Of a stretch of 64,000 bases of DNA, positions 262 to 46,113 are shown in pieces. A program made the translations under genes and the position numbers. The notes below the pieces were generated by a model. It was not told the origin of the DNA, did not search any database, and worked only from the letters and a program-made list of their open reading frames with translations. Source of the stretch: an uncultured Candidatus Saccharibacteria bacterium (lineage in GTDB: Bacteria; Patescibacteriota; Saccharimonadia; Saccharimonadales; JACDBH01); the NCBI GenBank assembly GCA_964644965.1, contig CAZXYN010000005.1:9759-73758 (forward strand), read 5' to 3'. How positions within the stretch are numbered: position 1 is the first letter of the stretch; every line of letters begins with the position of its first letter.

Positions 262-271
262 GAGCGGATTT

Positions 272-985
272 CTACAATTGGGTAGGTAGCGTAGGGGGCT
301 CGATCACAGTGTATCTGATAGTATAGTCGTCCGGGTTTATTCCAGCCCCGGATATATAATCAGTCACCCTCTTTCCATATTGTGCAATAATCTCATTTTT
401 ATCCCTGCCTAAATCTTCTCTAGTTACATATAAATCAACATCCAGGAATAAAATAGATTCACCCATGTCATCCGTGCCAAAAGTATACTTTATAAAAAAT
501 CTATCACCTTGGTGTGGCAGGATATTGAGGATTGGGTTGTCAAATCTCCCTCTGTCTGCAACATATGCCTCCAGCTCTTTTTGGGTACCGCTGAGTCTTT
601 CGAACTGTATATAACCAGCTGTGAAACTAACCCTCACTTCGTCGATAATCTCTTGATCCAAGGAAACAACGTTTTTAACAACGAAACTATAAGCCGTATC
701 CTTTTCTAGTCGCCGCAGGGTTAAGAAAAGATAGGGTCCTTCTGCAAAAGTTCTACTTACAATAAAATCACCTTCAATATTCTTAGCATAATCTATGGAC
801 GTATCCAGATCTTCACTAAACTCTAATCGAACTGTACTGGTAGACGTAGCAACCACTTGATTAGTATCAGGTGTTGATCTAACCAGCCTGAACTCATGGT
901 TCTGTCCGAAAAAGAACCAAACAGCTCCTATGACAGCAATCACTATCAATACCAGAATAGTTTTCCTTACATTGTTCGTGCTCAT
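272..985 (-). CDS. hypothetical N-terminally membrane-anchored protein, last gene of T4SS-like operon
   Basis: 237-aa ORF; N-terminal hydrophobic helix ILVLIVIAVIGAVWFFF then soluble domain; 4-nt start/stop overlap with upstream hydrolase gene (982-985). Confidence 0.6.
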   Translation of the reverse strand: MSTNNVRKTILVLIVIAVIGAVWFFFGQNHEFRLVRSTPDTNQVVATSTSTVRLEFSEDLDTSIDYAKNIEGDFIVSRTFAEGPYLFLTLRRLEKDTAYSFVVKNVVSLDQEIIDEVRVSFTAGYIQFERLSGTQKELEAYVADRGRFDNPILNILPHQGDRFFIKYTFGTDDMGESILFLDVDLYVTREDLGRDKNEIIAQYGKRVTDYISGAGINPDDYTIRYTVIEPPTLPTQL

Positions 986-5019: not shown

Positions 5020-5025
5020 TGTTCC

Positions 5026-6951
5026 CTACATGCCCGGTGCGAGCCGGTTATCTAGGTCTATTGTACCTTGTCCTTGGTCAATTTCGCCACCCTGTTCGAT
5101 TGCCTGCACCTGAGCCGGATCAGTCGTAATTAGACCCTGTTCGGTCTGGCTGGCAATAATTTGAATATGCACGTGATTTTGACCGGCAAAGAACAGCCCT
5201 TGCCCAACTGGGAATTGACTCAAGCGTTTCTTCTCTTCCGAAGTAAGCTTAAAGGTGTCGCTGAGCACATCAACCGCCGAACTCGACTGCTTAAGCAGAA
5301 TCTGCATACTGGCATTAGCGACAATCGCTCGACCCATGCGGGAGCCCATGAAATCTTCAACATCCTGGGTAATGGTGGTGATACCTAGGTTATATTTGCG
5401 GGCACGTTTAGCTAGGCTAAACAAGAAGTTAGCCGAATCTTCGTACTTCATAAGTTGCCAAGCTTCGTCCACCACCAAAATTCGGCGTTTGCGGTCACTC
5501 TTGGTCTTGTTCCAGATGTAATTTAGCACAATATACATAGCTACAGGTCGGAGTTCGTCCTCTAGGTCGCGAATATTGAACACGACCATCGGGTTATCGA
5601 TGTTTATGTTGCTTTGCTGCGAGAAAATACCAGCAAATGTACCGCTAGTGTACTTGCGTAATCTTTGAGCCAGCTGAGGACCGGTGCCGCCCATGTGTAG
5701 TAGTACATCGTACAGATCAGCAACGGTTGGCGCTGGCGATTGGTGGGTCAGCGGATCATCGGTAATTCCTGCACGTTTGTAAGTTTCAATCAGTGCAGCG
5801 TCTAGGTCAGACTCTTCGACAGGACTTAGCGCTGGCGCAATCATGCCGCCACCCTGCGCGGCACCGGCCATCTGTGCCTGCGCACCACCCATCATCAGAC
5901 GCAGCAGACCGTGCAAGGTTATCAAGTTGCTACGCAGCGCATCACCAGCGTCATCGCCATCTATGACTTGTGGCAAATCGAACGGATTGATACGGGTTGG
6001 CGAGTTGAGGCTGAGCTTTACATAAGCTCCGCCGACAGCCTCGGCCATGCGCTGGTATTCGTTTTCTGGATCGATGATAAATATCTCGGTGCCAAACATC
6101 AGGCTGCGCAGAGCCTCAAGCTTAACAGTAAAGCTCTTACCAGCACCAGACTTAGCAAAAACCACAGAGTTGCCGTTCTCTAGACTAAAACGATCAAATA
6201 TCACCAGCCCAGAGTTGTGCATATTGATGCCGTACATAATGCCGTTGTCTTGGCTGAGATCTGCCGATGTAAACGGAAATGTCGTGCTCAGTGCGCCGGT
6301 GTTCATGTTGCGACGAATCTGTAGCTGGTCGGTAAACTGCGGAATGGTGCTGTTGAGCCCCTGCTCTTGCTGGGCGCTGGCGACCTTGCTGTAGACCAGC
6401 TGCTGGCCAAGCATTGACTCTACCTTGTGGGTCACGAACTCCAACTCTTCCTGACTGTTGCCGTAGATGGTGAAATACAGACCAAATCGGAAGAATCTTT
6501 CCTCGCCCACCTGCAATTTGTCGCGCATTTCCTCGGCATCCATAATCGCCGCTTGTTTACCTGGGTCGCGGACACGACCCTTCTCGGAATCAATCTGAAT
6601 ACCGGCTTCCAGCTGAGTCACCTTCTTGCGTAGGTTTTCTAGTACAACCTGGCTCTCTACAGGGTAGATAAACATGCTGAGATCCATGACCTCATCTAGA
6701 TTAACCATACTACCAAGCCAGCCAGTAAACACTTGGCGCGGGTAGCCGTAGACGTAGAGGGTGCGAGCGTAGCGGGTACCAATACGGAAGAATCCACTCT
6801 GGAATTCGATTGAGCTCGGTGCAACAAAATCACGTAGCGCCGTGACGCCCTTTTGGAAAGCAGCGTGAACCTCTTGTTCCTCACGCTGTCTCTGGGCCTG
6901 AGCCAGCGCTACAGGATCGGCTTGCGGTTTTTGTTTTCCAAATGCCATCAT
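5026..6951 (-). CDS. virB4: VirB4/TrsE/PrgJ-class type IV secretion ATPase
   Basis: 641 aa; Walker A FAKSGAGKSFT, Walker B RILVVDEAWQLM; N-terminal FRIGTRYARTLYVYGYPRQVFTGWL typical of Gram-positive VirB4 homologues; GGAGG RBS upstream of ATG. Confidence 0.9.
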   Translation of the reverse strand: MMAFGKQKPQADPVALAQAQRQREEQEVHAAFQKGVTALRDFVAPSSIEFQSGFFRIGTRYARTLYVYGYPRQVFTGWLGSMVNLDEVMDLSMFIYPVESQVVLENLRKKVTQLEAGIQIDSEKGRVRDPGKQAAIMDAEEMRDKLQVGEERFFRFGLYFTIYGNSQEELEFVTHKVESMLGQQLVYSKVASAQQEQGLNSTIPQFTDQLQIRRNMNTGALSTTFPFTSADLSQDNGIMYGINMHNSGLVIFDRFSLENGNSVVFAKSGAGKSFTVKLEALRSLMFGTEIFIIDPENEYQRMAEAVGGAYVKLSLNSPTRINPFDLPQVIDGDDAGDALRSNLITLHGLLRLMMGGAQAQMAGAAQGGGMIAPALSPVEESDLDAALIETYKRAGITDDPLTHQSPAPTVADLYDVLLHMGGTGPQLAQRLRKYTSGTFAGIFSQQSNINIDNPMVVFNIRDLEDELRPVAMYIVLNYIWNKTKSDRKRRILVVDEAWQLMKYEDSANFLFSLAKRARKYNLGITTITQDVEDFMGSRMGRAIVANASMQILLKQSSSAVDVLSDTFKLTSEEKKRLSQFPVGQGLFFAGQNHVHIQIIASQTEQGLITTDPAQVQAIEQGGEIDQGQGTIDLDNRLAPGM

Positions 6952-7060
6952 AGGCCTCCTTCAGAGGCAATTATCAATTCACAATTATCAATTTTCATTA
7001 AATTTTCATTTACCAATTCGCATTCGGCCACGAATCGTCTGACAAATGTAGAACTACCTA

Positions 7061-7978
7061 TCATTGTAGTTCCCTCTCTAGATTTGGCTGCGGCGCAACA
7101 CCTTCGCCCTTGGTTACAACCGGGGCTGTCAGGTCGCCAAAGTTCTTCATCTGCTGGCGAGTAGCGGTATCTGGGTTGTAAGCATCGTAGAATAGCTCAA
7201 TAAGTTCCTGGGTATCTAGCGGTAGCCCTTGTACGCCACACTGCAGCATACCAGACAGCACCGCCTGGACTCGGTTTTTGAGCTCGGTCTTGGCGGCTTC
7301 TAGGTCTGCTTCGTTGATAGTGACGTGTTTTTCGTCACTTTGTTTAAACGACCCCATTAGATTGTTTATGAAACTTTTGCTGGCCTCTACAGCCTTCTGA
7401 GCTTCAAGCCCGACTGGAATAAACGGAATAACAATATAAAACCGCTTATCCATGATATTGGTCTGCTGAGCTATATTACTCATGAAGAAGATGTAATCTT
7501 CCATCAGTAGCGCCAGCAGCATGTTGTCGTGCTCGGAGCGTATCTTGTCGAGCTTCTCGATATAGGGGCGGATGTCCACCTTCTGTGAACGCACAAGGAT
7601 CTGGATTGGGAAATACAAAGAGTTTAGAAATCCCTGGTAGCTGTACTCTACGCCTTCTTGTTCCTGGGGATTCATCAGGTCAAAGTTCACGCTCTTCATC
7701 ATCAGCACAGACCGGAACGAACCGTCATTCATGATTACAATACCGTCGCGAATCTCAGCAATTTGCAAGGTGTTTTGGGTACTGTTTGGGTTGGTTGCTT
7801 GAGCGGACTGTATCTGCGGGCTCTGGGTTTGCGGCGGCATACCTGGTTGCATCTGGGGCGGTGCTTGACCGTACTGCTGGGCTGGAGTGATTGGCGCTGG
7901 CTGTGCGGGTACACTACCAGGCTGTGCGCCGGGATTAGGAGCTGCGTACGGATTCTGATTATCTGGATTCACTAGCAA
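7061..7978 (-). CDS. hypothetical T4SS-operon protein, Pro/Gln-rich N-terminus; C-terminal part resembles by eye the non-ATPase N-domain of conjugative VirB4-like proteins
   Basis: 305 aa; segment IAEIRDGIVIMNDGSFRSVLMMKSVNFDLMNPQEQEGVEYSYQGFLNSLYFPIQILVRSQKVDIRPYIEKL follows the pattern seen at N-termini of Gram-positive VirB4 homologues; no Walker motifs. Confidence 0.55.
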   Translation of the reverse strand: MLVNPDNQNPYAAPNPGAQPGSVPAQPAPITPAQQYGQAPPQMQPGMPPQTQSPQIQSAQATNPNSTQNTLQIAEIRDGIVIMNDGSFRSVLMMKSVNFDLMNPQEQEGVEYSYQGFLNSLYFPIQILVRSQKVDIRPYIEKLDKIRSEHDNMLLALLMEDYIFFMSNIAQQTNIMDKRFYIVIPFIPVGLEAQKAVEASKSFINNLMGSFKQSDEKHVTINEADLEAAKTELKNRVQAVLSGMLQCGVQGLPLDTQELIELFYDAYNPDTATRQQMKNFGDLTAPVVTKGEGVAPQPNLERELQ

Positions 7979-8112
7979 AGCCCCCAGCCTAGAGGTGAGT
8001 CATGCAGTATAGTTCTGTAAGAAATTGATTTCATAGGTAATCCCACTCTTCGAGTACAAACCAAAATGTCATTTCCAATTATAGGCGATTTCACCTTTAT
8101 AGTACAGGGTAA

Positions 8113-8548
8113 GAAACGTTAGCAATTTTCATTTTTCAATTCTCAATTTACAATCAACTGACAATGACCAATTATCAAAAGAAGTTTGACCTGGAGGAAA
8201 GAACTGCAAAGTTTGGCGAAGATGTGATAAATTTGTGCAAAAATCTGCCTAAAAACGAAATAACACGCCCACTAATCAATCAGATAATTCGTTCGGCAAC
8301 CAGTATCGGCGCAAACTACATGGAAGCCAACGGGGCTAGTAGCAAGAAGGACTTCAGGAATAAAGTATATATTTGTAAAAAAGAAGCTCAAGAAACCAGG
8401 CACTGGCTCAGGATGCTCGCCACCGCTCTACCGGAAGATAAAGAGGCTTTTCGTATTCTCTGGCAGGAGGCTCACGAGTTAGTCCTGATATTTCAGAAAA
8501 TCACCTCAACTCTAAATGAAAATTGAAAACTGAAACGTTTGAAAATTG
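8113..8548 (+). mobile_element. four-helix-bundle (IVS-protein) cassette with imperfect inverted repeats, inserted antisense in the T4SS operon
   Basis: Upstream CAATTTTCA (8123-8131) and TTTTCAATT (8133-8141) are complementary to downstream TGAAAATTG (8540-8548) and AATTGAAAA (8521-8529); GAAACGTT occurs at 8113-8120 and 8532-8539. Confidence 0.4.
8164..8526 (+). CDS. four-helix-bundle protein (23S rRNA intervening-sequence protein family)
   Basis: 120 aa; SATSIGANYMEANGASSKKDFRNKVYICKKEAQETRHWLRML matches the hallmark IxANIAEG...F...A.gS..E family pattern; only plus-strand gene within the minus-strand operon. Confidence 0.85.
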   Translation: MTNYQKKFDLEERTAKFGEDVINLCKNLPKNEITRPLINQIIRSATSIGANYMEANGASSKKDFRNKVYICKKEAQETRHWLRMLATALPEDKEAFRILWQEAHELVLIFQKITSTLNEN

Positions 8549-8552
8549 TCTT

Positions 8553-9665
8553 CTAGTGTAATGATACGACGACTTCGCCATCATCGTTCGGCTTGTTCAT
8601 TTTTTGAGCCTGCCGTGCGATAGTGGCAACGTCCAAATCATCATTGCTTGCAAGTCCAATTATAGCAGGGTTAACAGGGTTTTGTCTGTCTGTTTGCTGA
8701 TTGTTGCCTTGGGTTACTGCTGGTGCGGCCTGGGGCAAAGGTTTGCCCTGTTCGTCATGAAGCGGCTGCAGCACGCGTACGTGGTCTGACACGTGGGCTT
8801 TTTCTTTCTCGTGCTCTTCTACCAATTTGTGAGCAAAGGCCTTTTCTTCCTCGGTTACCTCTACAGACTGAGTGGAGTCATCGGTGCCAGGCGCTACGAC
8901 TTGCTGGTTAGCAAACGTCGCGTAGTTTTGCGGCAGAGGCATCTGTGGGGTCTGCGGCTGATTCATGAACCAATAGTCTTGTGCTGTTTGTGGCTTCTGG
9001 CCACCGCCCGACACTTGATCTCTAATCTGCTGCTTGTGGCTGCTAGAGGATTGTTTGATTAGCTGGTCGAGGTGCTGCGCGGTTGAGTTGGTGCTAGGAT
9101 CGAGCATGTCGTCAGATGGCAGCACATCTACACTGGACACATCCTGGGGTAAGCTGCTCGGGTCTACCAACCTATCAGAGTTTGCTGCCAAATACCCAGG
9201 CTGAGCAAACATATTGGCGTTGACGTTCTTCACCGCCCAGCCACGGCTGTCGACGGTGTTGGCTAGAGCTTGCAGACGGCTTTTTACTTCGTCTTGGTTA
9301 AAGTTCTTGGTAAAAACTTCTTGCACTCGCTTTGGTGCGGTTATGGTGACTAGGTCGCTGACACCGTCTTGGTTCCAGATTCGGGTACGAGATTTGAACA
9401 AAAACCGCAGCCGCGCCAGCAGCCAGATGTCATTTGGCTGATCACGCCCAATTGGCGCCGCTAGGAACCCTAGCACCAGCATAGGAACTAGCATCGGAGC
9501 TACAAAAACCACCTTCACAGGCAGCGGTATGCCAGTGACTATAACTCGAAAACAAATAAAACCCATCACAATCGCAACCGCCGCAAAGATAAACTGCTTG
9601 AGCGTAAACGGCCCAAATAGCTTGTCCTCTGCCTCTATATCTTGTAATACTTTATATGTCGCCAT
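8553..9665 (-). CDS. PrgI/VirB3-like T4SS membrane protein with long Gln/Pro-rich C-terminal extension
   Basis: 370 aa; N-terminus YKVLQDIEAEDKLFGPFTLKQFIFAAVAIVMGFICF followed by second TM (PrgI-family pattern). Confidence 0.7.
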   Translation of the reverse strand: MATYKVLQDIEAEDKLFGPFTLKQFIFAAVAIVMGFICFRVIVTGIPLPVKVVFVAPMLVPMLVLGFLAAPIGRDQPNDIWLLARLRFLFKSRTRIWNQDGVSDLVTITAPKRVQEVFTKNFNQDEVKSRLQALANTVDSRGWAVKNVNANMFAQPGYLAANSDRLVDPSSLPQDVSSVDVLPSDDMLDPSTNSTAQHLDQLIKQSSSSHKQQIRDQVSGGGQKPQTAQDYWFMNQPQTPQMPLPQNYATFANQQVVAPGTDDSTQSVEVTEEEKAFAHKLVEEHEKEKAHVSDHVRVLQPLHDEQGKPLPQAAPAVTQGNNQQTDRQNPVNPAIIGLASNDDLDVATIARQAQKMNKPNDDGEVVVSLH

Positions 9666-9739
9666 CTTTGTCTAAATTATAGATTATTTATCTGCTTACA
9701 AAAAGTGAGGTTTGCATGTTGTCTTTCAAGAATGCAGAA

Positions 9740-12700
9740 CTACTCAGGAAGATTAGGATCATTCGGATTGCGAGCTCGTGGGTTTAATCTTTCCCATCTT
9801 TGGGCTATTTGAGGGTCTCTTTCTATGCGGCCTCTAACGCTTGTTGGGTCAGAGGGGCCTGCAGCTCCAGGTCTCAGCCCTCCTGTCCTAATAAGGTCAG
9901 TGCTGTTCATGAGTTCATTAATCACCTCTTGGTTGTCGTCACTAGCATAAGACTTGGACTGGTTTAGTTGTTCTATTTGGGCTGCAGTTCTTAACATCTC
10001 ATCAGTAGCGTTATCTCTGTCTGTCTGAGACAACGTTTGGTCTTGTGATCTCCTGTGTTGTTCAGTAAGATGTGACCCAAGGGAACTTGCAAGGTTTCTA
10101 ACTTCCGGAGTTTTGCCTCTTAGTAAAGTGACTGGATCTTGAGCTCTTGAGGCTTGTACAGTTGCTCTATCATACGCAAGGGATGTGGGTCTTTGAGTAG
10201 GGCTCAACTCTTCGTGCACAAGACTCTGCAGGTTGCCAAATCCTGGAGCCAAATCACCACGCCCAACCTTCTTTGTCTCCGCATTTGCAAAACCAGCAAG
10301 TGCGCTTGCGGTAGATAGATTACCTCCAGATGCCCTAGCAAGTGTGCGTGACATATGCCCGACATCCCTGTAGCCAGTACCTGTAGATACCAGCTGTTGG
10401 GCAGCTGCAATAGCCGCTGCGCGTCCACCTAGTCCAGTTGCCTGCCAGGCTGCAATCGATCTGTCGGCTTCTGTCGCATTTACCCCATCAGCAATAAGTG
10501 CAGCACGGGCTTCCTTAGCGTTCATATCTTGCAATAGGATTCCTGCATGCAAAGCATTATCGTCTTGATTAACACCATTCCAGGCAGGATTCTTCATGAT
10601 TTGCTCCATGCTATTTAGCCGAGCCATCTGATCCATGCGAGCTTTGCCCTTTTTGCCCATTCCAAACACACCCTTACCACCACCTACTCCAGCACCCAGT
10701 CTTGTACCTGCGCCACGTGTAATCATATTCCTCTGACCAAATCCCGTACCGGTGCCAGTCTTGAATTCATTCCAGCGCTTGGCGCGAGATTCTTGACGAC
10801 CCTTCTTGAGCCTATCTAGCACACCACGCTCACTGTCATTGACCATACCAGCGATATTGCCAAACACACCACCAACCCACTTGAACATAAACGGTATAAA
10901 GAAGAACGGCATAATAAACGCACCAATAACAAGAACAACCTTCACTACGGAGTTGGTGGCCGCGAGTCCGGCGACGTTTGCAAACACTTCCCCAACCCCT
11001 AGCAAAAGCATAATCACCGGAAACAGCAGCAGCAGCCTAGAGAACGTCTTCCACCAAGTCTTCCACATGGCATCATTACCTGGGAAAATCCAGGCCAGGA
11101 TTGCGAGCGGAGCCACTAGGAACAGGGCAAGCAAAATAATTTGGCGAGCAATAAGGAGCAAGAAAATGCCGCCTAGCACGAGCGCAGCCGAAAAGAGCGT
11201 GCTCATAATCACGCCAACGCTAGCAATACTTACAAAGAGTCCTGCCGCAGCGATTACTCCCAGTCCAGCGACACGTGCCTGATCTCCAACACTTGCCCCA
11301 TCACCTGCCTGCAGCACCTGTGCATTCACCAAGGCTGCTCTAAGTGGTGCACCCTGGGTGCCAACATCAAACGGTCCTGTTATTAGTCCGCGTATACCCA
11401 CTCCAATAACATTCGTAATCTCTACAAGGAACAGGCAGATATACCAAGACAAAGTAATAAATATCACCGCTATCACCATGCGCGGCAATGCCTTCTTGAT
11501 TGTGTAAGCACTGAATATTTCAAACCCAAGCGCAGTCCCAATTACCATGACAAGCATTATCGGCACAAGGATTGCGTAGGCAATATTTCGTATCTGAGTC
11601 CAAGAAGCTTTCAATTTTTGCCCTGCACTCGGGTCGCCATTTTCTTCGGGCGCTTGGTCAAAATAACTACTTTTTATAAACAACAGGTCTCTGATTTGCT
11701 CATCGAGGAACGCAACTATATTGTCCAAAAGCTCTGCTACTGGACACAAAATCCAACTCAAACCACCGCCGTTGGATGAACATTCATCAATTTCTTCGTC
11801 TCCACCACCCGTTATATTCTCTCCGGCCTGGGTTGTTGAGACTCCGTCGGTATTTTCAGAACCTGCTACCGTTACAGCGAGCACATTACTAGAGCCCTCT
11901 TTTCTTATTTGTAAATCTCTAGTACCAGATCCTATTGACGCAACTTCTGTCGGGGTAGAAGTTATGTATAGATTTCCATTACAGTTTTCGGTTCTGAATT
12001 GATTGCGCCCTGCACACCAAGAGAACGTACGAGTGCCCTGCTCTCCTTGAGACACGTGCTGGATGAGTGTTTCTTCACCAGCGCCAACCACCCCGTAAGT
12101 TATATTGAACTTATCAAGCCCACCGATAATGGCACCCACCTTATAGCCAGTGGCACCACTCGGTATACTATGCCCACAGCGCCATTCAAGAGGGTTACCA
12201 TAAAGCAGGAAGTTGCCGTTTGTTAAGCCATCACACTCAGCACTTGTTCTATCTTCCTCAAATCCTATTATGTAGTCTATATCGCTAATAAGCCCCTGTA
12301 GGTCGGAGCGAGTAATTTTTTTATCCTTTCCATTAAAAGTATCGTTTAGTTCGTCATCCAGTCTACCGCTGAATCCTTTAACCCGACTTTCATCGGAGGT
12401 ATCATCCCCACTTACAAATCGGTAATCAAAGTTACCGTCACCTGTATTCGAATCTATAAGGTAGCCATCAAGAAGGTTCTTGAACTCATCATTTGCAAAT
12501 ACATACCTTGCATTTGCTCCAGAGGGTGAATCGCAATTGCCCGACCCACTATAACTTACTTGTATTGCGGCGCGGTTAACAAAACTAATATTCAGCCAGC
12601 CCGACGGACGTCGAGTATCGTGATTATAGGGGGGCACACAGAGCTGGTTGGGTTCGGTTGCGTGTACAGCTTCGGACGAAGGATTCACGACCGCTAGTGC

Positions 12701-12778
12701 TGCAGCAGCGAGAAATGAAACAGCAATAACAAGTAATGTGCGCCATAAGCTAGCTAACTGCTTATGTTTTGGACTCAT
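9740..12778 (-). CDS. VirB6/TrbL/PrgH-like polytopic T4SS membrane protein with large N-terminal extracytoplasmic and C-terminal cytoplasmic domains
   Basis: 1012 aa; signal/anchor LLVIAVSFLAAAALAVV, Cys-containing about 330-aa domain, then multiple hydrophobic helices around aa 390-640, then about 370-aa hydrophilic tail. Confidence 0.7.
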   Translation of the reverse strand: MSPKHKQLASLWRTLLVIAVSFLAAAALAVVNPSSEAVHATEPNQLCVPPYNHDTRRPSGWLNISFVNRAAIQVSYSGSGNCDSPSGANARYVFANDEFKNLLDGYLIDSNTGDGNFDYRFVSGDDTSDESRVKGFSGRLDDELNDTFNGKDKKITRSDLQGLISDIDYIIGFEEDRTSAECDGLTNGNFLLYGNPLEWRCGHSIPSGATGYKVGAIIGGLDKFNITYGVVGAGEETLIQHVSQGEQGTRTFSWCAGRNQFRTENCNGNLYITSTPTEVASIGSGTRDLQIRKEGSSNVLAVTVAGSENTDGVSTTQAGENITGGGDEEIDECSSNGGGLSWILCPVAELLDNIVAFLDEQIRDLLFIKSSYFDQAPEENGDPSAGQKLKASWTQIRNIAYAILVPIMLVMVIGTALGFEIFSAYTIKKALPRMVIAVIFITLSWYICLFLVEITNVIGVGIRGLITGPFDVGTQGAPLRAALVNAQVLQAGDGASVGDQARVAGLGVIAAAGLFVSIASVGVIMSTLFSAALVLGGIFLLLIARQIILLALFLVAPLAILAWIFPGNDAMWKTWWKTFSRLLLLFPVIMLLLGVGEVFANVAGLAATNSVVKVVLVIGAFIMPFFFIPFMFKWVGGVFGNIAGMVNDSERGVLDRLKKGRQESRAKRWNEFKTGTGTGFGQRNMITRGAGTRLGAGVGGGKGVFGMGKKGKARMDQMARLNSMEQIMKNPAWNGVNQDDNALHAGILLQDMNAKEARAALIADGVNATEADRSIAAWQATGLGGRAAAIAAAQQLVSTGTGYRDVGHMSRTLARASGGNLSTASALAGFANAETKKVGRGDLAPGFGNLQSLVHEELSPTQRPTSLAYDRATVQASRAQDPVTLLRGKTPEVRNLASSLGSHLTEQHRRSQDQTLSQTDRDNATDEMLRTAAQIEQLNQSKSYASDDNQEVINELMNSTDLIRTGGLRPGAAGPSDPTSVRGRIERDPQIAQRWERLNPRARNPNDPNLPE

Positions 12779-12839
12779 GTATCAAAATATAGCAGTAAAC
12801 GCAATAAAATAACAGGGTTAATATTTACATTAACAGAGG

Positions 12840-13946
12840 TTAATTCGTAATACTTGGTTCGTTGCTCACGATTCGCCAGCTCATTTCCTGAATACTGCCA
12901 GAATCTTTGTTCAGAATGAGACGGGTGAACTCAAGATAAGCTTGACCAGCATTGGATGGCTTGCCAAGCGTCGTGTCTTTAGCTTGGCTGAGAATATCTG
13001 CATTATTGATATCATCACCGCTATAAAACGAGAATACGCCCATGTAACCAGTACAGCTAACCGTATTGCCGTTATCAACACATTCCTCCACTCTTACATA
13101 ATCTTCTGTTGCATAGAATCGTTCAAGCGATCGCATGCGCTCTTCGGCGCCTTCATAATCAAAGTCTTCGCTAGATTCGCCCCCCATTACACGAGCGAGA
13201 GCATCAGTGTCTCGTAAATTGAGTGCAGCTAGAATGTCTTCGCCTACTTCTGTGAGTAAGCTTTCCGGAGCGCTACTCTCGAAGTAGTAATTTCCCTCAG
13301 AAACGGTGTCGGAATAGCCATGATTCGTAAGCTCAGACAACAGCAACGATTCGCTATCGTTCAAAAATGGGTAGCTTCCTTTTCGCGGCTCAACCTCTGA
13401 GCTGTCTTCAGGATTTTCCTCGGCTACTGGTTCGTCAACTTCTACTGGGTTGCTCGGGTCTTCTACAACTTCATCAGTAGTGTTTTCTGCCGGGACAGGA
13501 GCTGCTTCGGGAGTGTTATCTCCACTACCAGCCAGGCCTTTTGCGACAAAAGCTGCGCCACCAGCCAGTACGACTGCCGCAGTGAACGCGCCAATCTTCT
13601 TGCCTAGTGACATTTTCTTCTTGTCTTCTGGATTGCGAGGATCTTCTTCAATTTTTAGAGGGGTAATAAGACCCTTTTCGTGGGCTACACCAAGATGAGT
13701 GTCAAATTCTTTAACAGGTTTTTCAAGTCCAAGATTGCCCGAGTGAGGGATGCTATCTGTCTTCGTATACTCAGCTTCGACGACACCACCATCAGCAGGG
13801 CCGTACAGAGATGCTTGGTCTTGCTCAGCAGTATTGGCTTCATTAGCATCCGGGAATAGCTGCTGTTGGTTGATTTCGTCGTGGTTTATGTCTGTCATAG
13901 AATTTGTCCTTATAATTTCTAACGAACTGCCTGTATTATACCACAT
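12840..13946 (-). CDS. hypothetical single-pass membrane protein, first gene of T4SS-like operon
   Basis: 368 aa; TM IGAFTAAVVLAGGAAFVAKGLAG, acidic Pro/Glu-rich linker, C-terminal globular part; alternative start MTDINH at 13898. Confidence 0.6.
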   Translation of the reverse strand: MWYNTGSSLEIIRTNSMTDINHDEINQQQLFPDANEANTAEQDQASLYGPADGGVVEAEYTKTDSIPHSGNLGLEKPVKEFDTHLGVAHEKGLITPLKIEEDPRNPEDKKKMSLGKKIGAFTAAVVLAGGAAFVAKGLAGSGDNTPEAAPVPAENTTDEVVEDPSNPVEVDEPVAEENPEDSSEVEPRKGSYPFLNDSESLLLSELTNHGYSDTVSEGNYYFESSAPESLLTEVGEDILAALNLRDTDALARVMGGESSEDFDYEGAEERMRSLERFYATEDYVRVEECVDNGNTVSCTGYMGVFSFYSGDDINNADILSQAKDTTLGKPSNAGQAYLEFTRLILNKDSGSIQEMSWRIVSNEPSITN

Positions 13947-14043
13947 GAAAACGCTTGTGTCTAGTACCCAGAACCATTTTGCGACTGTTCACCCCTGTGA
14001 AAATTTCTAAAAAAGTCCAAAAACCCACAAAGACTATACAAAC

Positions 14044-14072
14044 TTGTCTTTTGCCACCGAAGAGTTTATAGT
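14044..14072 (+). promoter_or_regulatory. candidate sigma70-type promoter of pilin array
   Basis: TTGTCT (14044-14049), 17-nt spacer, TATAGT (14067-14072); only 8 nt before ATG 14081, implying a near-leaderless transcript. Confidence 0.35.
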
Positions 14073-14080
14073 TAGACCAA

Positions 14081-14608
14081 ATGCGTATGATAAAAAACAA
14101 AAAGCTATCATATTTTGCGCTCATTCCCCTGTTTGTTCTGATATTGGGGGTATTTTCAGTCTCGCAAACAGCGAACGCTCAAACACCAGAGCAGCAATGC
14201 CAATCATTATTGAACGATCCAGCCGACCCGGGGAATATAGGTTACAATGAGTGTGTAAATCAGATACGCGCAGCCCAGAACGGTATTCCGTCTGAAAACA
14301 CAGGAAGTTCATCAAGCGATAGCTGGACGGGTTCTGCAACAGATGCAAATTGCGAAGAAAGCATCAGTGCCCAGGATTGTGGCATCACATGGTATTTAGT
14401 GGTGGCTATTAATATCTTGTCGGCACTGGCTGGAATTGCCATTGCCATCTCTATCGCCTACGGGGGTATTGAGTACTCTATGTCTGGTAGCGATCCGCAG
14501 AAAGTCAGCGCTGCTAAGGATCGTATCCGCAATGCGATCATTGCCCTAATCTTCTTCATATTCGGGTTTGCCATCCTAAATTACCTCATACCGGGAGGTT
14601 TGCTATAG
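14081..14608 (+). CDS. VirB2/TrbC-like T4SS pilin paralog 1
   Basis: 175 aa; signal peptide ending ANA-Q; two C-terminal TM helices with loop YGGIEYSMSGSDPQKVSAAKDRIRNAIIALI shared with the five downstream paralogs. Confidence 0.75.
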   Translation: MRMIKNKKLSYFALIPLFVLILGVFSVSQTANAQTPEQQCQSLLNDPADPGNIGYNECVNQIRAAQNGIPSENTGSSSSDSWTGSATDANCEESISAQDCGITWYLVVAINILSALAGIAIAISIAYGGIEYSMSGSDPQKVSAAKDRIRNAIIALIFFIFGFAILNYLIPGGLL

Positions 14609-14610
14609 CT

Positions 14611-15126
14611 ATGAAAAAATCACTCCTCTTTATTGGTTTTATGACGGTTTTTAGTCTCATGTTGGTGCAAACAGCCTCAATGCCCTCTAGTTTCGTGGGC
14701 TCAAGTACCGTCTCGGCTCAAGCTCCTAGCGTCGAGGATGCAGACGGTGATGGTGATAATTGCACAGAGCGTATCCTGGGTCTTCCGGTTTGGTGGGCGT
14801 ACCTTGATGTTGGCGAGGTAAGAAACAGCGAGGGCGAAGTCATAGATGAATGTGGAGTAAAGGGTCCTGCCTACTCTGATGGTAGTATGAAGTGGGAAAG
14901 TGCAGCGGGTCTCATCGCCCTAGCCATATTCGAAATACTCCTTCGGCTTGGAGCGGTTGTGGCGGTTGGGTATGTCATATACGGTGGCTTCCGCTTCATT
15001 ACATCCCAGGGGGAACCTGAAAATGCTGCTTCTGCCCGTAGCACAGTTATAAATGCCGTTATTGGACTGGTTATAGCCATGGCATCAGCTAGTATAGTCA
15101 GCTTCCTAGCTAATAGGTTAACCTAA
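14611..15126 (+). CDS. VirB2/TrbC-like T4SS pilin paralog 2
   Basis: 171 aa; signal peptide; C-terminal YGGFRFITSQGEPENAASARSTVINAVIGLVIA two-helix motif. Confidence 0.75.
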   Translation: MKKSLLFIGFMTVFSLMLVQTASMPSSFVGSSTVSAQAPSVEDADGDGDNCTERILGLPVWWAYLDVGEVRNSEGEVIDECGVKGPAYSDGSMKWESAAGLIALAIFEILLRLGAVVAVGYVIYGGFRFITSQGEPENAASARSTVINAVIGLVIAMASASIVSFLANRLT

Positions 15127-15160
15127 GGATGTATAAAAGTAAGGTGTAAAATAAGATAGT

Positions 15161-15454
15161 ATGCAGAACTTATTAATCAGAGCAGCACAGGTTTTAGATC
15201 CCGATAATCTGGAAGGTGTCCCCAAGGGTAATTTAGACCCAATTACTCTAACGGATGCGCTTCAATGGGTCTTCGGTGTGTTCGCGGCTGTTGCGGTGCT
15301 GGTTATTGCTATCGCTGCCTTTCGAATAGTTATATCAAGGGGTAATCCACAAGACGTTTCTAAGTCACGAGACACAATTATCTATGCAGCTGTTGGCCTA
15401 GCAATAAGTTTGATGGCGTTTACTATCGTAACCTTTGTTGTGGAGCGTGTGTAA
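15161..15454 (+). CDS. VirB2/TrbC-like T4SS pilin paralog 3 (no obvious signal peptide)
   Basis: 97 aa; two TM helices; FRIVISRGNPQDVSKSRDTIIYAAVGLAIS motif. Confidence 0.7.
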   Translation: MQNLLIRAAQVLDPDNLEGVPKGNLDPITLTDALQWVFGVFAAVAVLVIAIAAFRIVISRGNPQDVSKSRDTIIYAAVGLAISLMAFTIVTFVVERV

Positions 15455-15840
15455 TGAGGAGACTACTTAGCCTGCTACTCATCAGTTCGTTCCTGGCAAT
15501 CCCTTTTCTTGCTGTTTCACCTGTCCATGCACAATTTGATCCGTTCGCAGATATTTGTGATCCTTCTACAGCCGATGCCGCTGCCTGTAGTACGAATGGC
15601 AAAGATGACCCACTGTCTGGTAGTGACGGTCTGATTATGAAGGCTGTGATGATACTGTCGTATGCGACAGGAGCGGCTGCTGTAATAATGGTAATCCTGG
15701 GCGGCCTGAAGTTTATTACCGCCAACGGCGATGCCAATAGTGTGTCCAGTGCCCGAAACACCGTGCTTTACGCACTCATAGGTATAGTAGTATTCGCTGC
15801 ATCACAATTAATCGTAAGATTCGTAATAAGTAGTCTATAG
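15454..15840 (+). CDS. VirB2/TrbC-like T4SS pilin paralog 4
   Basis: 128 aa; signal peptide ending VHA-Q; LGGLKFITANGDANSVSSARNTVLYALIGIVV motif; 1-nt stop/start overlap with paralog 3. Confidence 0.75.
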   Translation: MRRLLSLLLISSFLAIPFLAVSPVHAQFDPFADICDPSTADAAACSTNGKDDPLSGSDGLIMKAVMILSYATGAAAVIMVILGGLKFITANGDANSVSSARNTVLYALIGIVVFAASQLIVRFVISSL

Positions 15841-15845
15841 GAGAT

Positions 15846-16253
15846 ATGAATATGCAAAAAAGATTGAAACTAGCTGCCTTGAGCCTGATGATGGCGATAG
15901 GTTTGCTTGTGCCTGCGCTTGCCTCGGCTCCGGTCTCTGCACAGGTATCTGAAGATTCAAAGCAGGCAGCTTGTGATGGGCTAGGACTCGGCGCCGACGA
16001 AGGTGGCTGTAACGGCACGGCTGGTACGTCTGTCTCTAGCCTGCTGGCTGATGTAATCAATATTTTGTCATGGATTGTAGGTATCGTGGCAGTAATTATG
16101 ATAATTATCGGTGGGTTCAAATACGTCCTGTCTAACGGCGATAGCGCTGGCATAAACAGCGCCAAGAACACCATTATATATTCACTAATCGGGCTTGTGG
16201 TCGCTGCGCTTGCGCAGATAATGGTGCAGTTTGTCCTGGATAGGGTCACTTGA
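15846..16253 (+). CDS. VirB2/TrbC-like T4SS pilin paralog 5
   Basis: 135 aa; signal peptide ending SAQ; IGGFKYVLSNGDSAGINSAKNTIIYSLIGLVV motif. Confidence 0.75.
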   Translation: MNMQKRLKLAALSLMMAIGLLVPALASAPVSAQVSEDSKQAACDGLGLGADEGGCNGTAGTSVSSLLADVINILSWIVGIVAVIMIIIGGFKYVLSNGDSAGINSAKNTIIYSLIGLVVAALAQIMVQFVLDRVT

Positions 16254-16339
16254 GGCTACGAGTGGTTACGCTTGTAACAGGGCGTATCTAGTGATATAAC
16301 TAATGCTAAAGCAATAAAGTAAATGAGGAATAACAAAAG

Positions 16340-16762
16340 ATGATAAAGAAAATAAAACAATTTGCCTTAATTCTAGCACTGAGCGCTGGTCTTTTCATGC
16401 CAGTGGCGCTAGTTGGTGTTACGAGTGCTCAGGCAAACATTCAGGGTAGTCTGTGTGATGGAACAGAGTTCGCCCCTGCTCCAGTTGATGGCAGCAGCGG
16501 TAGTTGTGATACAGCTGGAAGCACAGGAAGTGTCCAGAGTGCTATTAGTACAGCAGTTGACCTACTGTCATGGGTAGTTGGTATCGTATCTGTAATCATG
16601 ATTATTGTCGGTGGTTTCCGCTACATCACCTCTGGTGGTGCGAGCGACAAAGTTACTGGTGCCAAGAACACCATTATCTATGCAATCATCGGTCTAGTCA
16701 TTGTGGCGCTTGCCCAGTTCATCGTGAACTTTGTACTCAACCAGACGGTTAACATAACCTAA
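16340..16762 (+). CDS. VirB2/TrbC-like T4SS pilin paralog 6
   Basis: 140 aa; signal peptide ending AQA-N; VGGFRYITSGGASDKVTGAKNTIIYAIIGLVI motif, closest to paralog 5. Confidence 0.75.
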   Translation: MIKKIKQFALILALSAGLFMPVALVGVTSAQANIQGSLCDGTEFAPAPVDGSSGSCDTAGSTGSVQSAISTAVDLLSWVVGIVSVIMIIVGGFRYITSGGASDKVTGAKNTIIYAIIGLVIVALAQFIVNFVLNQTVNIT

Positions 16763-16847
16763 GGTAGAGCAATAAATTTGTGTTAAGCCCCGGTTCCTCA
16801 CTGGGGTTTTTCTTTGCCCTTAGCTCCCGCCCCTTCTAGGGACAATC

Positions 16848-16880
16848 AAAAACCCGCTCGGTTTCAAGAGCGGGTTTTTT
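16848..16880. terminator. bidirectional rho-independent terminator
   Basis: AAAAACCCGCTC-ggtttcaa-GAGCGGGTTTTTT: 8-9 bp GC-rich stem with A-run upstream and T-run downstream, between convergent pilin array and hsp20. Confidence 0.7.
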
Positions 16881-16931
16881 GTCGAGGTTTCTAAGGTTTA
16901 GAGAACTTCGATTTTCTTGACCGTGTCCTGT

Positions 16932-18669: not shown

Positions 18670-18762
18670 GGAGAGGTACCCAAGTGGCTGAAGGGGACGG
18701 TTTGCTAAATCGTTAGTGGGGCGAGAGTTCCAGCGAGGGTTCGAATCCCTCTCTCTCCGCCA
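18670..18762 (+). tRNA. tRNA-Ser (anticodon GCU), CCA encoded
   Basis: Hand-folded: acceptor GGAGAGG/TCTCTCC, anticodon stem ACGGT/ATCGT with loop TTGCTAA, long variable arm, T-arm GAGGG-TTCGAAT-CCCTC, 3' GCCA. Confidence 0.85.
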
Positions 18763-18927
18763 ATACGAATATTTAATAGCTCGTACGCTTTTAAATATTC
18801 GTATATGGTTCGGCAGATAGGGGTGAGAACGGGAAGTTCGGGGGACTTCCCCGCACCTTGCCCGTGCTATGCCAGTGGCATAGCTAAGGGGCTGGCTGGC
18901 AAAAGTAAGTTTTTTTGCCGCCAGAGG

Positions 18928-18949
18928 CGAATCCCTCTCTCTCCGCCAA
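18928..18949 (+). repeat. 22-bp echo of tRNA-Ser 3' end
   Basis: CGAATCCCTCTCTCTCCGCCAA is identical to 18742-18763 (T-loop through CCA+A of tRNA-Ser GCU; the first 21 bp, through CCA, also match tRNA-Ser GGA at 46074-46094). Confidence 0.85.
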
Positions 18950-18956
18950 GATTCTT

Positions 18957-19316
18957 TTACAATCTATATTTTCCTTGAGGACGAATAGAGCGTCTGCCGT
19001 CTAAGCATTCAGGGATAAGGTATTCCCTACCGTCTGAAGTAAGTACATATAGCCAGTCATATGCATTTTGCTTGGTTTTCTTGATAACGTAGCCTTGAGA
19101 ATTGCTGTGTATTCTTCTAAGCTCAACATCTTTACCACTGTTATACCTGACTTGTACACGGTAAATGGTTTCGTCTTTGTCTACTAGTAGGTCGTACGCA
19201 GCTGACTCTGTTATTGGCAGGGCTAGATCGTAACCCATCCTAGTGAAGGTTGCTATTGATTGCGCGACAGCTATGTCGCCTTTGCGTTGTGTGGTTCTCA
19301 TAAGGAAAGTATACAC
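18957..19316 (-). CDS. small PD-(D/E)XK-type endonuclease (group I intron-associated endonuclease-like family)
   Basis: 119 aa; KGDIAVAQSIATFTRMGYDLALPITESAAYDLLVDKDETIYRVQVRY follows the G..AE..V...G..V..P..D..YDL...RVQVK pattern of small PD-(D/E)XK nucleases; sits between two tRNA-Ser genes. Confidence 0.6.
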   Translation of the reverse strand: MYTFLMRTTQRKGDIAVAQSIATFTRMGYDLALPITESAAYDLLVDKDETIYRVQVRYNSGKDVELRRIHSNSQGYVIKKTKQNAYDWLYVLTSDGREYLIPECLDGRRSIRPQGKYRL

Positions 19317-19338
19317 GGTAGGGCATACCGTTCAATAA

Positions 19339-19428
19339 GGAGAGATGCTCGAGTGGTTTAAGAGAACAGTCTTGAAAACTGTCGTGCCGGAAACGGTACC
19401 GTGGGTTCGAATCCCACTCTCTCCGCCA
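19339..19428 (+). tRNA. tRNA-Ser (anticodon UGA), CCA encoded
   Basis: Acceptor GGAGAGA/TCTCTCC, anticodon stem ACAGT/ACTGT with loop CTTGAAA, long variable arm, T-arm GTGGG-TTCGAAT-CCCAC, GCCA. Confidence 0.85.
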
Positions 19429-19491
19429 AGGAATGCCGCCTGTCATAGGCGGTATTTTGTTTACCCCTGCCCCTTGCGGTACAATAACCAT

Positions 19492-20678: not shown

Positions 20679-20755
20679 TGGTACACCCGGCAGGATTCGA
20701 ACCTACGACCTCCTGTACCGCAAACAGACGCTCTATCCAGCTGAGCTACGGGTGC
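20679..20755 (-). tRNA. tRNA-Arg (anticodon read as GCG), CCA encoded
   Basis: Reverse complement GCACCCGTAGCTCAGCTGGATAGAGCG-TCTGT-TTGCGGT-ACAGG-AGGTC-GTAGGTTCGAATCCTGC-CGGGTGT-ACCA; acceptor/D-arm closely resemble bacterial tRNA-Arg. Confidence 0.75.
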
Positions 20756-20857: not shown

Positions 20858-20876
20858 CCAGCTGAGCTACGGGTGC
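20858..20876 (-). repeat. 19-bp echo of tRNA-Arg 5' end
   Basis: CCAGCTGAGCTACGGGTGC identical to 20737-20755 (acceptor 5' strand plus D-arm of the tRNA on minus strand), 102 bp upstream of the gene. Confidence 0.85.
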
Positions 20877-23224: not shown

Positions 23225-23315
23225 GGAAGAGTGGCTGAGCTGGTTTAAGGCGCACGACTCGAAATCGTGTGTGCGGGAAATCGTACCGTGGGTTCGAATC
23301 CCACCTCTTCCGCCA
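23225..23315 (+). tRNA. tRNA-Ser (anticodon CGA), CCA encoded
   Basis: Acceptor GGAAGAG/CTCTTCC, anticodon stem CACGA/TCGTG with loop CTCGAAA, long variable arm, T-arm GTGGG-TTCGAAT-CCCAC, GCCA. Confidence 0.85.
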
Positions 23316-23323
23316 GGAAGATG

Positions 23324-23354
23324 AACCCGACCCTTGTGGTCGGGTTTGACTTTT
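23324..23354 (+). terminator. rho-independent terminator after tRNA-Ser(CGA)
   Basis: AACCCGACC-cttgt-GGTCGGGTT followed by TGACTTTT. Confidence 0.5.
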
Positions 23355-23431
23355 CTGATGAAAAGTCTGGGATGGGAACCCGGGTTCGTCGTATGCGAAG
23401 CGGAGAAGCCCAGCTTGTCTGGGCGCTATCT

Positions 23432-23446
23432 CACCTCTTCCGCCAG
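23432..23446 (+). repeat. 15-bp echo of tRNA-Ser(CGA) 3' end
   Basis: CACCTCTTCCGCCAG identical to 23302-23316. Confidence 0.8.
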
Positions 23447-46002: not shown

Positions 46003-46094
46003 GGAGAGGTGTCCGAGTGGTTTAAGGAGCACGCTTGGAAAGCGTGTATGTGAGGCAACTTGCATCGAGGGTTCGAATCCCTCTCTCTCCGCCA
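46003..46094 (+). tRNA. tRNA-Ser (anticodon GGA), CCA encoded
   Basis: Acceptor GGAGAGG/TCTCTCC, anticodon stem CACGC/GCGTG with loop TTGGAAA, long variable arm, T-arm GAGGG-TTCGAAT-CCCTC, GCCA. Confidence 0.85.
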
Positions 46095-46113
46095 TAAGTA
46101 GTACAATGTAGTT

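Follow-up and report, generated by a model that had tools for sequence, protein, structure and literature searches.

Two tRNA-associated insertions, a structured mini-element and a PD-(D/E)XK nuclease gene, probably share the interval between two tRNA-Ser genes of a Saccharibacteria bacterium

In an uncultured Candidatus Saccharibacteria bacterium (assembly GCA_964644965.1), the genes for tRNA-Ser(GCU) and tRNA-Ser(UGA) enclose a short interval, in which the 3' end of the first tRNA recurs as a 22-nt echo and is followed by a small minus-strand gene for a putative PD-(D/E)XK nuclease. The interval lies within a stretch of 64,000 nt (contig CAZXYN010000005.1, positions 9,759 to 73,758), which was analysed as a whole and is referred to as the window. 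A first-pass annotation, made from the sequence alone, had regarded the repeat and the nuclease gene as one decayed or miniature integrated or homing element. Are they parts of a single element, or did they reach the same place independently? Related loci, designated by L numbers in the following, point to the latter: with a probability of roughly 60%, the interval consists of two independent tRNA-associated insertions, namely a non-coding mini-element and a separate nuclease gene. The gene is not regarded as part of the insertion because locus L005 contains it without an echo, because locus L121 contains three mini-elements without the gene, and because the repeats bracket non-coding DNA only.

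The insertion at the 3' end of tRNA-Ser(GCU)

The upstream part of the interval contains the following features.

18670..18762, plus strand: tRNA-Ser(GCU), intact (ARAGORN; Rfam tRNA, 52.8 bits)
18742-18763, plus strand: repeat copy 1, the last 21 nt of tRNA-Ser(GCU) and one flanking base
18763..18949, plus strand: 187-nt insertion of hairpin, structured body and echo (three-way alignment; sequence of the relative L005)
18763..18804, plus strand: terminator-like hairpin with a perfect 14-bp stem (18 nt at 94%) and the loop TAGCTCGTACGCT
18806..18830, plus strand: 5' arm TGGTTCGGCAGATAGGGGTGAGAAC, which imperfectly matches a tRNA 3' end / T-arm in inverted orientation (family alignment)
18831..18851, plus strand: hairpin H1, GGGAAGT-TCGGGGG-ACTTCCC (RNAalifold, five compensatory pairs)
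18866..18884, plus strand: hairpin H2, GCTATGCC-AGT-GGCATAGC
18894..18922, plus strand: hairpin H3, GGCTGGCAAAA-GTAAG-TTTTTTTGCCGCC
18928..18949, plus strand: echo, repeat copy 2 (shuffle test and three-way alignment), contiguous with the ancestral flank GATTCTTTTACAATC

The repeated 22-mer, CGAATCCCTCTCTCTCCGCCAA, spans the tRNA from C56 of the T-loop to the CCA end and includes one base beyond the encoded CCA. Its copies at 18742-18763 and 18928-18949 are identical and in direct orientation, just as the first-pass annotation had reported, and the number of matches expected by chance is zero even with three mismatches (100 dinucleotide shuffles). The distance of 165 bp given previously was roughly right, the measured values being 164 nt between the copies and 186 nt from start to start. 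Copies with one mismatch are found in the 3' ends of tRNA-Ser(UGA) (19408-19429) and tRNA-Ser(GGA) (46074-46095).

The relatives L005 and L119 reveal what the locus looks like without the repeat. L005 is a Logan contig with ComF, the same tRNA-Ser(GCU), the nuclease gene, whose product is 89% identical to that of the window, and tRNA-Ser(UGA). A three-way alignment showed that the 187-nt block is only present in the window and is missing from both relatives at the same tRNA-Ser(GCU), which is identical in the three loci except for 1 nt. In L005, the tRNA (...CCGCCA) runs straight into GATTCTTTTACAATC, which in the window is found directly behind the echo. Since the tRNA of L005 and L119 is directly joined to this post-echo sequence, the echo corresponds to the original tRNA 3' end, and since the empty sites are devoid of the hairpin, the terminator-like hairpin arrived with the insert. 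The exact boundaries of the insertion can shift within the 22-nt repeat. At the sequence level, this comparison of the interval in relatives supports the view that the repeat is an insertion footprint, which is polymorphic and not a conserved trailer. Repeat copy 1 is accordingly read as the tRNA-Ser(GCU) 3' end that was regenerated by the insertion, and the echo as the displaced original 3' end. The insert has no open reading frame of its own; the sole overlapping one is a stretch of 57 aa that extends beyond the echo.

The insert contributes a renewed tRNA 3' end together with a terminator-like hairpin and a structured body of ~120 nt with a conserved three-way structure. The perfect 14-bp hairpin that was said to open the spacer is indeed found at 18763-18804; its arms are ATACGAATATTTAA (18763-18776) and TTAAATATTCGTAT (18791-18804), and its loop motif AGCTCGTACGCT is kept in the copies of L121. 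In the window, GGGGTGAG of the 5' arm can pair with CGAATCCC of the echo, thereby forming helix P1. Downstream of H1 lies the conserved linker CCCCGCACCTTGC; its CCTT forms helix P2 with AGG(C), which is located just 5' of the echo. RNAalifold predicted P1 as a pairing of GGGATTCG with the CGAATCCC of the echo, P2 as a pairing of CCTT with AAGG, and H1 with five pairs that are preserved despite changes on both sides; the structural claim for the family of related elements, referred to as family A, is restricted to these three helices. A closing helix that would be formed by the 5' arm with the echo is suggestive. An inverted T-arm match is found at the position of the 5' arm in most elements, but is weak in the window copy (p~0.95 on its own). 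Searches of the window and 11 element-bearing loci against Rfam 15, including its tRNA-like, tmRNA, ribozyme and intron families, yielded only chance-level matches to the body of the element. The 5' motif GGGAT..GAATTCGAAC resembles the 5' end of tmRNA, yet the idea of a tmRNA or tRNA-like gene was rejected, as both ARAGORN and Rfam were negative and a real tmRNA from the candidate phyla radiation (CPR; L029) is unlike the element.

Does the spacer occur elsewhere, as the first-pass annotation had suggested checking? When the window and the first 85 loci were searched with the spacer by BLAST, no further copy was retrieved; family members were recognised solely through a scan for tRNA echoes and a covariance model, by which eight copies including that of the window were obtained. 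The model was built from seven family copies and detected the eight with 73-141 bits (E 1e-15 to 1e-32) in six Saccharibacteria loci, namely the window, L121 (three copies, two of them in tandem), L062, L028, L078 and L069; no other match exceeded 25 bits, and these weaker matches represent ordinary 3' halves of tRNAs. Each of the eight copies is located directly 3' of a tRNA gene (Ser-GCU, Ser-UGA or Arg-GCG), and the echo always corresponds to the local tRNA; at tRNA-Ser(UGA) of L121, it has the usual form of that tRNA. In L121, two tandem copies behind tRNA-Ser(GCU) and one behind tRNA-Ser(UGA) lie within 1.4 kb (4170-5570). The second GCU copy and the UGA copy have nearly identical hairpins, which speaks for movement or conversion inside a single genome. 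Furthermore, the T-arm of the regenerated tRNA-Ser(UGA) of L121 (GAGGG/CCCTC) is unlike its echo (CCCAC), differs from it on both strands and resembles the T-arm of tRNA-Ser(GCU), suggesting from the sequence that the entire 3' part was replaced.

Family A seems to belong to a wider class of tRNA echoes. Copies of the last 16 nt of 180 tRNAs were searched in 85 CPR loci and the window, and approximately 20 of these tRNAs have a 3' echo outside tRNA genes, which is located 50-450 nt downstream and always in direct orientation. A further 14 matches are copies of the first 16 nt of a tRNA (5' echoes), almost all of them upstream, and no copy of a tRNA middle was found in the same scan. The usual layout comprises the tRNA, a hairpin, an imperfect inverted copy of a tRNA T-arm / 3' end, one to three hairpins and the echo, often followed by a second hairpin. 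Echoes begin in or just after the T-loop; the duplicated tRNA end measures 16-22 nt and the inserts 110-190 nt. The inverted T-arm copy is found at spacer positions ~40-70 in nearly all elements and is individually significant in about 10 of 18. Tandem or multiple copies also occur at tRNAs in L056 and L082.

Several observations concern other sites of this kind. The window contains a second tRNA-end mini-element (23316-23446) behind tRNA-Ser(CGA) (23225-23315), which comprises a hairpin, the 12-nt palindrome GGGATGGGAACCCGGGTTCG, GCGAAGC, another hairpin (GCCCAG-CTTGT-CTGGGC) and a 3' echo with one mismatch (23432-23446), and which abuts the stop codon of a convergent gene of 390 aa. It is missed by the family A model; a clear homologue is located behind tRNA-Ser(CGA) in L078. 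At tRNA-Arg(GCG) (20679-20755, minus strand), the first 19 nt, GCACCCGTAGCTCAGCTGG, which reach up to the D-loop, recur 102 nt upstream (20858-20876, minus strand), with a promoter-like TTCATC..TACAAT between the tRNA and this 5' echo. Similar 5' echoes were found in L029, L033, L052, L068 and L077, and some are arranged in tandem (L037). A search with the body pattern TGGGATGWGAA..GCCAGTGGC gave three matches in IMG/VR and 30 in JGI metagenomes, all of which lay in coding DNA away from any tRNA and were dismissed as due to chance.

The nuclease gene and its tRNA partner

The remainder of the interval is occupied by the nuclease gene and its promoter, which border on the second tRNA gene.

18957..19301, minus strand: PD-(D/E)XK gene (PF11645, I-Ssp6803I-like), 114 aa, ATG start
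19308..19335, minus strand: promoter of the nuclease gene, TTGAAC, 16 nt, TATACT
19315-19331: palindrome ACGGTATGCCCTACCGT in the promoter spacer, candidate operator
19339..19428, plus strand: tRNA-Ser(UGA), intact (ARAGORN; Rfam tRNA, 59.3 bits)

The minus-strand reading frame of 119 aa that had been described exists (18957-19316, GTG start); however, the length of the homologues (~114 aa) and the promoter, whose −10 box terminates 6 nt upstream of an ATG at 19301, point to this ATG as the start and to a protein of 114 aa. Due to the same short distance, the mRNA is probably leaderless. The assignment to a small PD-(D/E)XK nuclease family was correct: the protein matches Pfam PF11645 (PDDEXK_5) with an E-value of 5.8e-15 and 56 bits (cut-off 26.1), and phmmer detected the homing endonuclease I-Ssp6803I (PDB 2OST) with an E-value of 1.3e-4. 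Using an AlphaFold2 model (predicted local distance difference test score, pLDDT, 86.2; predicted template modelling score, pTM, 0.80), Foldseek ranked the chains of 2OST first (E 5e-9, TM-score 0.78-0.81; root mean square deviation of the best match 2.5 Å), followed by Hjc resolvases and the nuclease domain of SPARDA. The protein is also matched by the PADLOC model 'HEase', and NCBIfam has no model for it. Sequence and predicted fold together indicate a genuine PD-(D/E)XK protein of the I-Ssp6803I family. The group I intron with which such endonucleases had been associated was not found at this locus: an Rfam scan with E-values of up to 10 detected none, and both flanking tRNAs are intact.

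Homologues of the nuclease are numerous (more than 1300, the best 120 of which are 66-100% identical). By scanning one genome per GTDB species with a peptide pattern (185,579 species genomes), at least 136 loci were confirmed, which are spread over many CPR lineages. In 78 of 82 loci, tRNA-Ser(UGA) is found within ~110 nt of the gene, and in two more (L005, L056) the tRNA is cut by the contig end. The two genes are divergent in 40 loci, as in the window, where tRNA-Ser(UGA) is located 37 nt from the ATG of the nuclease gene; in 25 loci the gene precedes the tRNA (gap 0-90 nt), and in 13 it follows the tRNA. The position of tRNA-Ser(GCU) relative to the gene is variable. The closest phage homologue (52% identity), encoded by Arthrobacter phage Talia1610 (L122, PQ559666.1 93582-94028) and annotated as 'Holliday junction resolvase', overlaps tRNA-Ser(UGA) in a tRNA array. 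More distant homologues border on tRNA-Pro in a Vibrio phage (L123) and on tRNA-Tyr in an Acinetobacter phage (L125); all three phage genes are located inside tRNA arrays and end at or overlap a tRNA 5' end. For a homologue of a Klebsiella phage, no annotated tRNA was found nearby. Judged by these gene neighbourhoods, the nuclease clade is tied to tRNA-Ser(UGA) in many lineages of CPR bacteria as well as in at least one actinophage.

The gene is not always present. The relatives L119 and L121 share the pilin-HSP20-ComF neighbourhood and have no nuclease gene in the locus; in L119, tRNA-Ser(GCU) and tRNA-Ser(UGA) are separated by 30 nt. In L045 (2860-3390), a perfect 39-nt direct repeat, TCCGCCTGTAGGGAGGGGTGGCAGAGTGGCCGATTGCAC, is found on both sides of the nuclease gene. 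It consists of the last codons of the gene and the first 28 nt of tRNA-Ser(UGA) and resembles a scar left by an insertion or a duplication at the tRNA D-arm. In L031 and L064, a unit of tRNA-Ser(UGA) and the gene is located between tRNA-Ser(GCU) repeats. Taken together, linkage, presence/absence and flanking repeats are features expected of a free-standing gene of the homing type whose tRNA partner is fixed. The homing-type character that had been proposed for the gene thus gains support from its presence and absence in syntenic relatives and from the homologues beside tRNA genes.

The idea that the gene is a remnant of something decayed is contradicted by its divergence from L005, in which the nuclease has kept 89% amino acid identity although synonymous sites are near saturation. 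For comparison, ComF and HSP20 are 66% and 95% identical between window and L005, and the third-position identity at identical residues is 0.51 for the nuclease, 0.40 for ComF and 0.70 for HSP20. The high amino acid identity, combined with a third-position identity between those of ComF and HSP20, implies that the gene has diverged together with its flanks under strong purifying selection. Judging from these substitutions, it is not decaying and is kept by selection. Recent horizontal transfer between the two was rejected as an explanation, as the third-position identity is no higher than that of the flanking genes.

The promoter contains a motif that is conserved in the family. In 58 of 82 loci, the region preceding the gene contains a sequence of the form YRGT-N7-ACYR, compared to 2.2% of random 80-nt windows; related variants of the palindrome are visible in most of the remaining loci, and this holds true with the tRNA on either side. 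The protein, which by analogy to I-Ssp6803I should be dimeric or tetrameric, probably binds the palindrome and represses its own gene. Other likenesses of the palindrome were also inspected. Half-sites fused as ACGGTACCGT are found in the junction of variable arm and T-stem of tRNA-Ser(UGA) (19393-19402 in the window); such half-sites occur in only 15 of 80 tRNAs, including that of the gene-less L119, and are either a coincidence or a lead. A near copy, GACGGTAGGGAATACC, which encodes DGREY, lies within the nuclease gene (19019-19034); neither the fused half-sites nor this copy are conserved across the family. The proposal that the palindrome mimics the anticodon arm of tRNA-Ser(UGA) was discarded: although the two sequences share the form GT-N7-AC, no covariation of the arms was seen across loci. 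The arms ACGGT/ACCGT correspond to the anticodon stem of tRNA-Ser(GCU) (18701-18717, ACGGT TTGCTAA ATCGT) and share its 5+7+5 geometry. In this post hoc comparison, 8-9 of 10 arm positions match in 14 of 33 loci, mostly Saccharimonadales, and the match fails in other lineages; it may be a hint of an ancestral target or due to chance.

Is the protein still an endonuclease? D9, E32, D37 and Q50 are invariant in the 82 loci, and the position of the motif lysine is occupied by arginine in the window (Arg52), in 70 of the 82 loci and in 112 of 120 proteins; lysine is found in 12 of the 82 loci and is retained by the phage homologues. It is conceivable, albeit rather doubtful, that the protein no longer acts as a homing endonuclease and has become a domesticated DNA-binding protein, which might, for instance, regulate its own promoter together with the tRNA-Ser(UGA) promoter that overlaps it. 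The exchange of lysine for arginine in most CPR members and not in the phage homologues, the strong purifying selection and the conserved palindrome between the −35 and −10 boxes would be in line with domestication. The same applies to the gene arrangement: in divergent loci, the extended −10 box of the tRNA (TGTGATATAAT type) stands back-to-back with the −35 box of the gene, and where the gene precedes the tRNA with a gap of 0-50 nt, co-transcription is likely. Against it, the acidic active-site residues and Q50 are invariant, some loci have kept the lysine, and the patchy distribution and the flanking repeats fit a selfish gene. Moreover, autorepression also occurs in true homing endonucleases such as I-TevI.

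The wider neighbourhood includes genes for T4SS pilins, TrbL, HSP20 and ComF around the interval. Upstream of it, positions 1-16900 of the window contain a cluster reminiscent of type IV secretion (T4SS) or conjugation (several T4SS_pilin, TrbL_3, PrgI), as deduced from precomputed Pfam hits on identical contigs; such clusters are typical of Saccharibacteria. Four Logan contigs (L001-L004; SRR16797988, SRR16797999, SRR16797979) match the window identically on both flanks and end within tRNA-Ser(GCU) (~18719) and tRNA-Ser(UGA) (~19399), so that the interval is missing from these short-read assemblies, which is probably due to strain variation or to the repeats at the locus. Exact-protein look-ups with the nuclease of the window matched no contig.

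Origin of the two insertions

In the favoured scenario, the 187-nt element sits in the part of tRNA-Ser(GCU) that reaches from the T-loop to the 3' end. Its own tRNA 3' end and terminator-like hairpin keep the tRNA gene intact and terminated, and the original 3' end has been displaced downstream as the 22-nt echo, following the attL/attR logic (left and right attachment sites) of tRNA-integrating elements. As it encodes no protein, the element would have to be moved in trans, possibly by a site-specific recombinase of the tyrosine type with a crossover in the T-loop, which Williams reportedly described in 2002 as one of the crossover sublocations of tyrosine integrases. A break in the T-loop that is repaired by copying another element-bearing tRNA locus would be a less likely route. 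The PD-(D/E)XK gene would be an older and separate insertion, which occupies the stretch from tRNA-Ser(GCU) to tRNA-Ser(UGA). The general principle, according to which the insert regenerates part of the tRNA and the displaced fragment marks the far end, is described in PMC4383910.

A recombinase acting in trans is favoured as the mover by analogy and with limited confidence, because none is in view, the unit is very small and the T-arm of the L121 copy differs from its echo. Several findings weigh against the scenario of two insertions as outlined here. No integrase, transposase or recombinase domain was found in the 18 window reading frames tested, nor is one evident in the loci that hold mini-elements, and a circle of 187 bp would be very small for integrase chemistry. 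The mismatch between T-arm and echo in L121 is better explained by a recombination point that lies upstream of the T-loop, or by subsequent divergence, than by a crossover strictly within the T-loop. Hairpins that covary, as well as GNRA loops, are encountered more typically in functional RNAs than in attachment-site arms, and the closing helix between 5' arm and echo is clearly better than with shuffled echoes in only about 5 of 17 elements. As for the nuclease gene, its divergence at synonymous sites does not point to a recent transfer between window and L005, and the arginine at the position of the motif lysine makes cleavage activity uncertain.

Could the 187-nt block be primarily an RNA gene? 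It is improbable that the block is chiefly a structured small RNA gene with a tRNA-like 3' end, which is made by read-through or processing of the tRNA transcript, inherited vertically and sometimes lost. The compensatory changes in H1, the conservation of P1 and P2, the frequent GNRA-type loops and the second terminator hairpin after many copies would suit such a gene, and the copies of window and L121 are 60-68% identical though ComF is just 56% identical and the synonymous sites between window and L005 are near saturation. Against this reading stand the patchy occurrence among close relatives, the tandem or multiple copies at different tRNAs of one genome (L121, L056, L082) and the echo, which always corresponds to the local tRNA; in addition, neither a promoter for the block nor an Rfam family was found. 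A small RNA would be only a partial alternative, as it is compatible with mobility.

Similarly unlikely is an origin of the echo as a repair scar, in which an endonuclease, possibly the neighbouring PD-(D/E)XK protein, cuts tRNA genes in the T-loop and recombinational repair duplicates the tRNA ends and copies the block from a different locus. There is a precedent in T-even phages: SegB of T4/T6 cuts tRNA genes at RAWTSGAAC, which is the antisense of the T-loop, and drives recombination-dependent amplification of tRNA segments (PMC13096335). Echoes that start inside the T-loop, 5' and 3' partial tRNA duplications and tandem units in these loci, and the whole T-arm replaced in L121 are consistent with repair. 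On the other hand, the mini-elements of L121 occur without a nuclease gene in the 7.7-kb locus and the gene of L005 occurs without an echo, the promoter palindrome is unlike the T-loop, and local duplication alone leaves the conserved foreign body unexplained.

Finally, a single decayed integrated or homing element of echo, spacer and nuclease gene, as proposed at the outset, is very improbable, even though the echo ends 7 nt from the stop codon of the gene, the tRNA-Ser(UGA) 3' end forms a third repeat (95% identical) beyond the gene, and units of tRNA-Ser(UGA) and nuclease gene are bracketed by tRNA-Ser(GCU) repeats in L031 and L064, since the gene is intact and under purifying selection and L005 and L121 contain gene and mini-elements separately.

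With two independent insertions as the preferred reading, the interval gains significance beyond this locus. The mini-elements would apply the tRNA logic of large mobile elements, which regenerate the gene and displace its old end, at a size of 110-190 nt and without a gene of their own. Such elements occur frequently in CPR bacteria, whose tiny genomes are thought to be poor in mobile DNA, so that the remodelling of these genomes would become testable, and they would also account for breaks in short-read assemblies at these tRNAs. The clade of I-Ssp6803I relatives with tRNA-Ser(UGA) as fixed partner is a candidate for a new tRNA-gene-specific homing endonuclease, or for a case of domestication. 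The strongest leads are the near-universal linkage of nuclease and tRNA-Ser(UGA) and the large number of structured mini-insertions found at tRNA ends in CPR loci. No published description of either the mini-element or the tRNA-Ser(UGA)-linked nuclease was found in the literature searched, whose coverage was incomplete. As a long shot, it could be speculated that CPR tRNA genes host a new class of structured protein-less mini-elements, each equipped with a tRNA 3' end, a terminator, an inverted tRNA-end arm and a covarying three-way fold, that spread via T-loop breaks or recombination, with the Ser(UGA)-linked PD-(D/E)XK clade as a (partly domesticated) nuclease or regulator acting on tRNA gene DNA, which possibly couples tRNA-Ser(UGA) transcription to its own operator. 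If this were true, the two features of the interval would be functionally connected after all.

Comparison with known systems

The mini-element shares several properties with miniature inverted-repeat transposable elements (MITEs), repetitive extragenic palindromes and the mosaic elements built from them (REP/BIME), and the palindrome-associated elements derived from IS200/IS605 (PATEs): all of them are short, non-coding, multi-copy and rich in hairpins, and are, or in the present case would be, moved in trans. Imperfect terminal inverted repeats may be a further common trait, the mini-element having an imperfect inverted arm that resembles a tRNA end. In contrast, the 'target duplication' of the mini-element comprises 16-22 nt and is always a tRNA end, unlike the duplications made by DDE transposases, and one of its terminal repeats comes from the target. 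We know of no transposase that matches the mini-element.

A further parallel exists to islands and prophages that integrate into tRNA genes. Integrase-less derivatives of tRNA islands include the cis-mobilisable CIMEs of Streptococcus. As in such islands, the tRNA is split by the mini-element, its 3' part is regenerated and the displaced fragment is found at the far end (PMC4383910). Further common traits are the block of identity, which reaches from the T-loop to the 3' end, and the tandem accretion seen in L121, L082 and L056. The mini-element differs by its size of 110-190 nt, its lack of an integrase or any open reading frame, its covarying conserved hairpins, its inverted tRNA-end-like arm and the existence of a 5'-end counterpart. 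By analogy, it would work like a tRNA-integrating island that has been reduced to its att region.

For the nuclease, the closest structural relative is I-Ssp6803I, which is encoded in the group I intron of the tRNA-fMet gene of Synechocystis. The two proteins have the Pfam family and fold, the small size and the association with a tRNA gene in common. In addition, I-Ssp6803I recognises a 23-bp pseudo-palindrome (PMC3384342), and a palindrome of 17 bp with a 5+7+5 geometry is conserved here in the promoter of the gene itself. The differences are that the gene of the window is free-standing, is not associated with an intron and is linked to tRNA-Ser(UGA) instead of tRNA-fMet, that the identity amounts to only 23-24%, and that the motif lysine is mostly replaced by arginine. 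A functional counterpart is SegB, a GIY-YIG endonuclease, which is encoded by a free-standing gene in the tRNA cluster of T4/T6 phages and promotes the inheritance and amplification of the tRNA segment (PMC2330249, PMC13096335). Both are stand-alone nuclease genes wedged among tRNA genes, and PF11645 members of phages abut tRNA genes as well. The nuclease of the window has a PD-(D/E)XK fold and is located on the cellular chromosome of a CPR bacterium, and its clade is nearly exclusive for one isoacceptor, whereas SegB acts without isotype preference. Despite these differences, the nuclease would, by analogy, functionally come closest to the free-standing endonucleases, such as SegB, that phages encode in their tRNA clusters.

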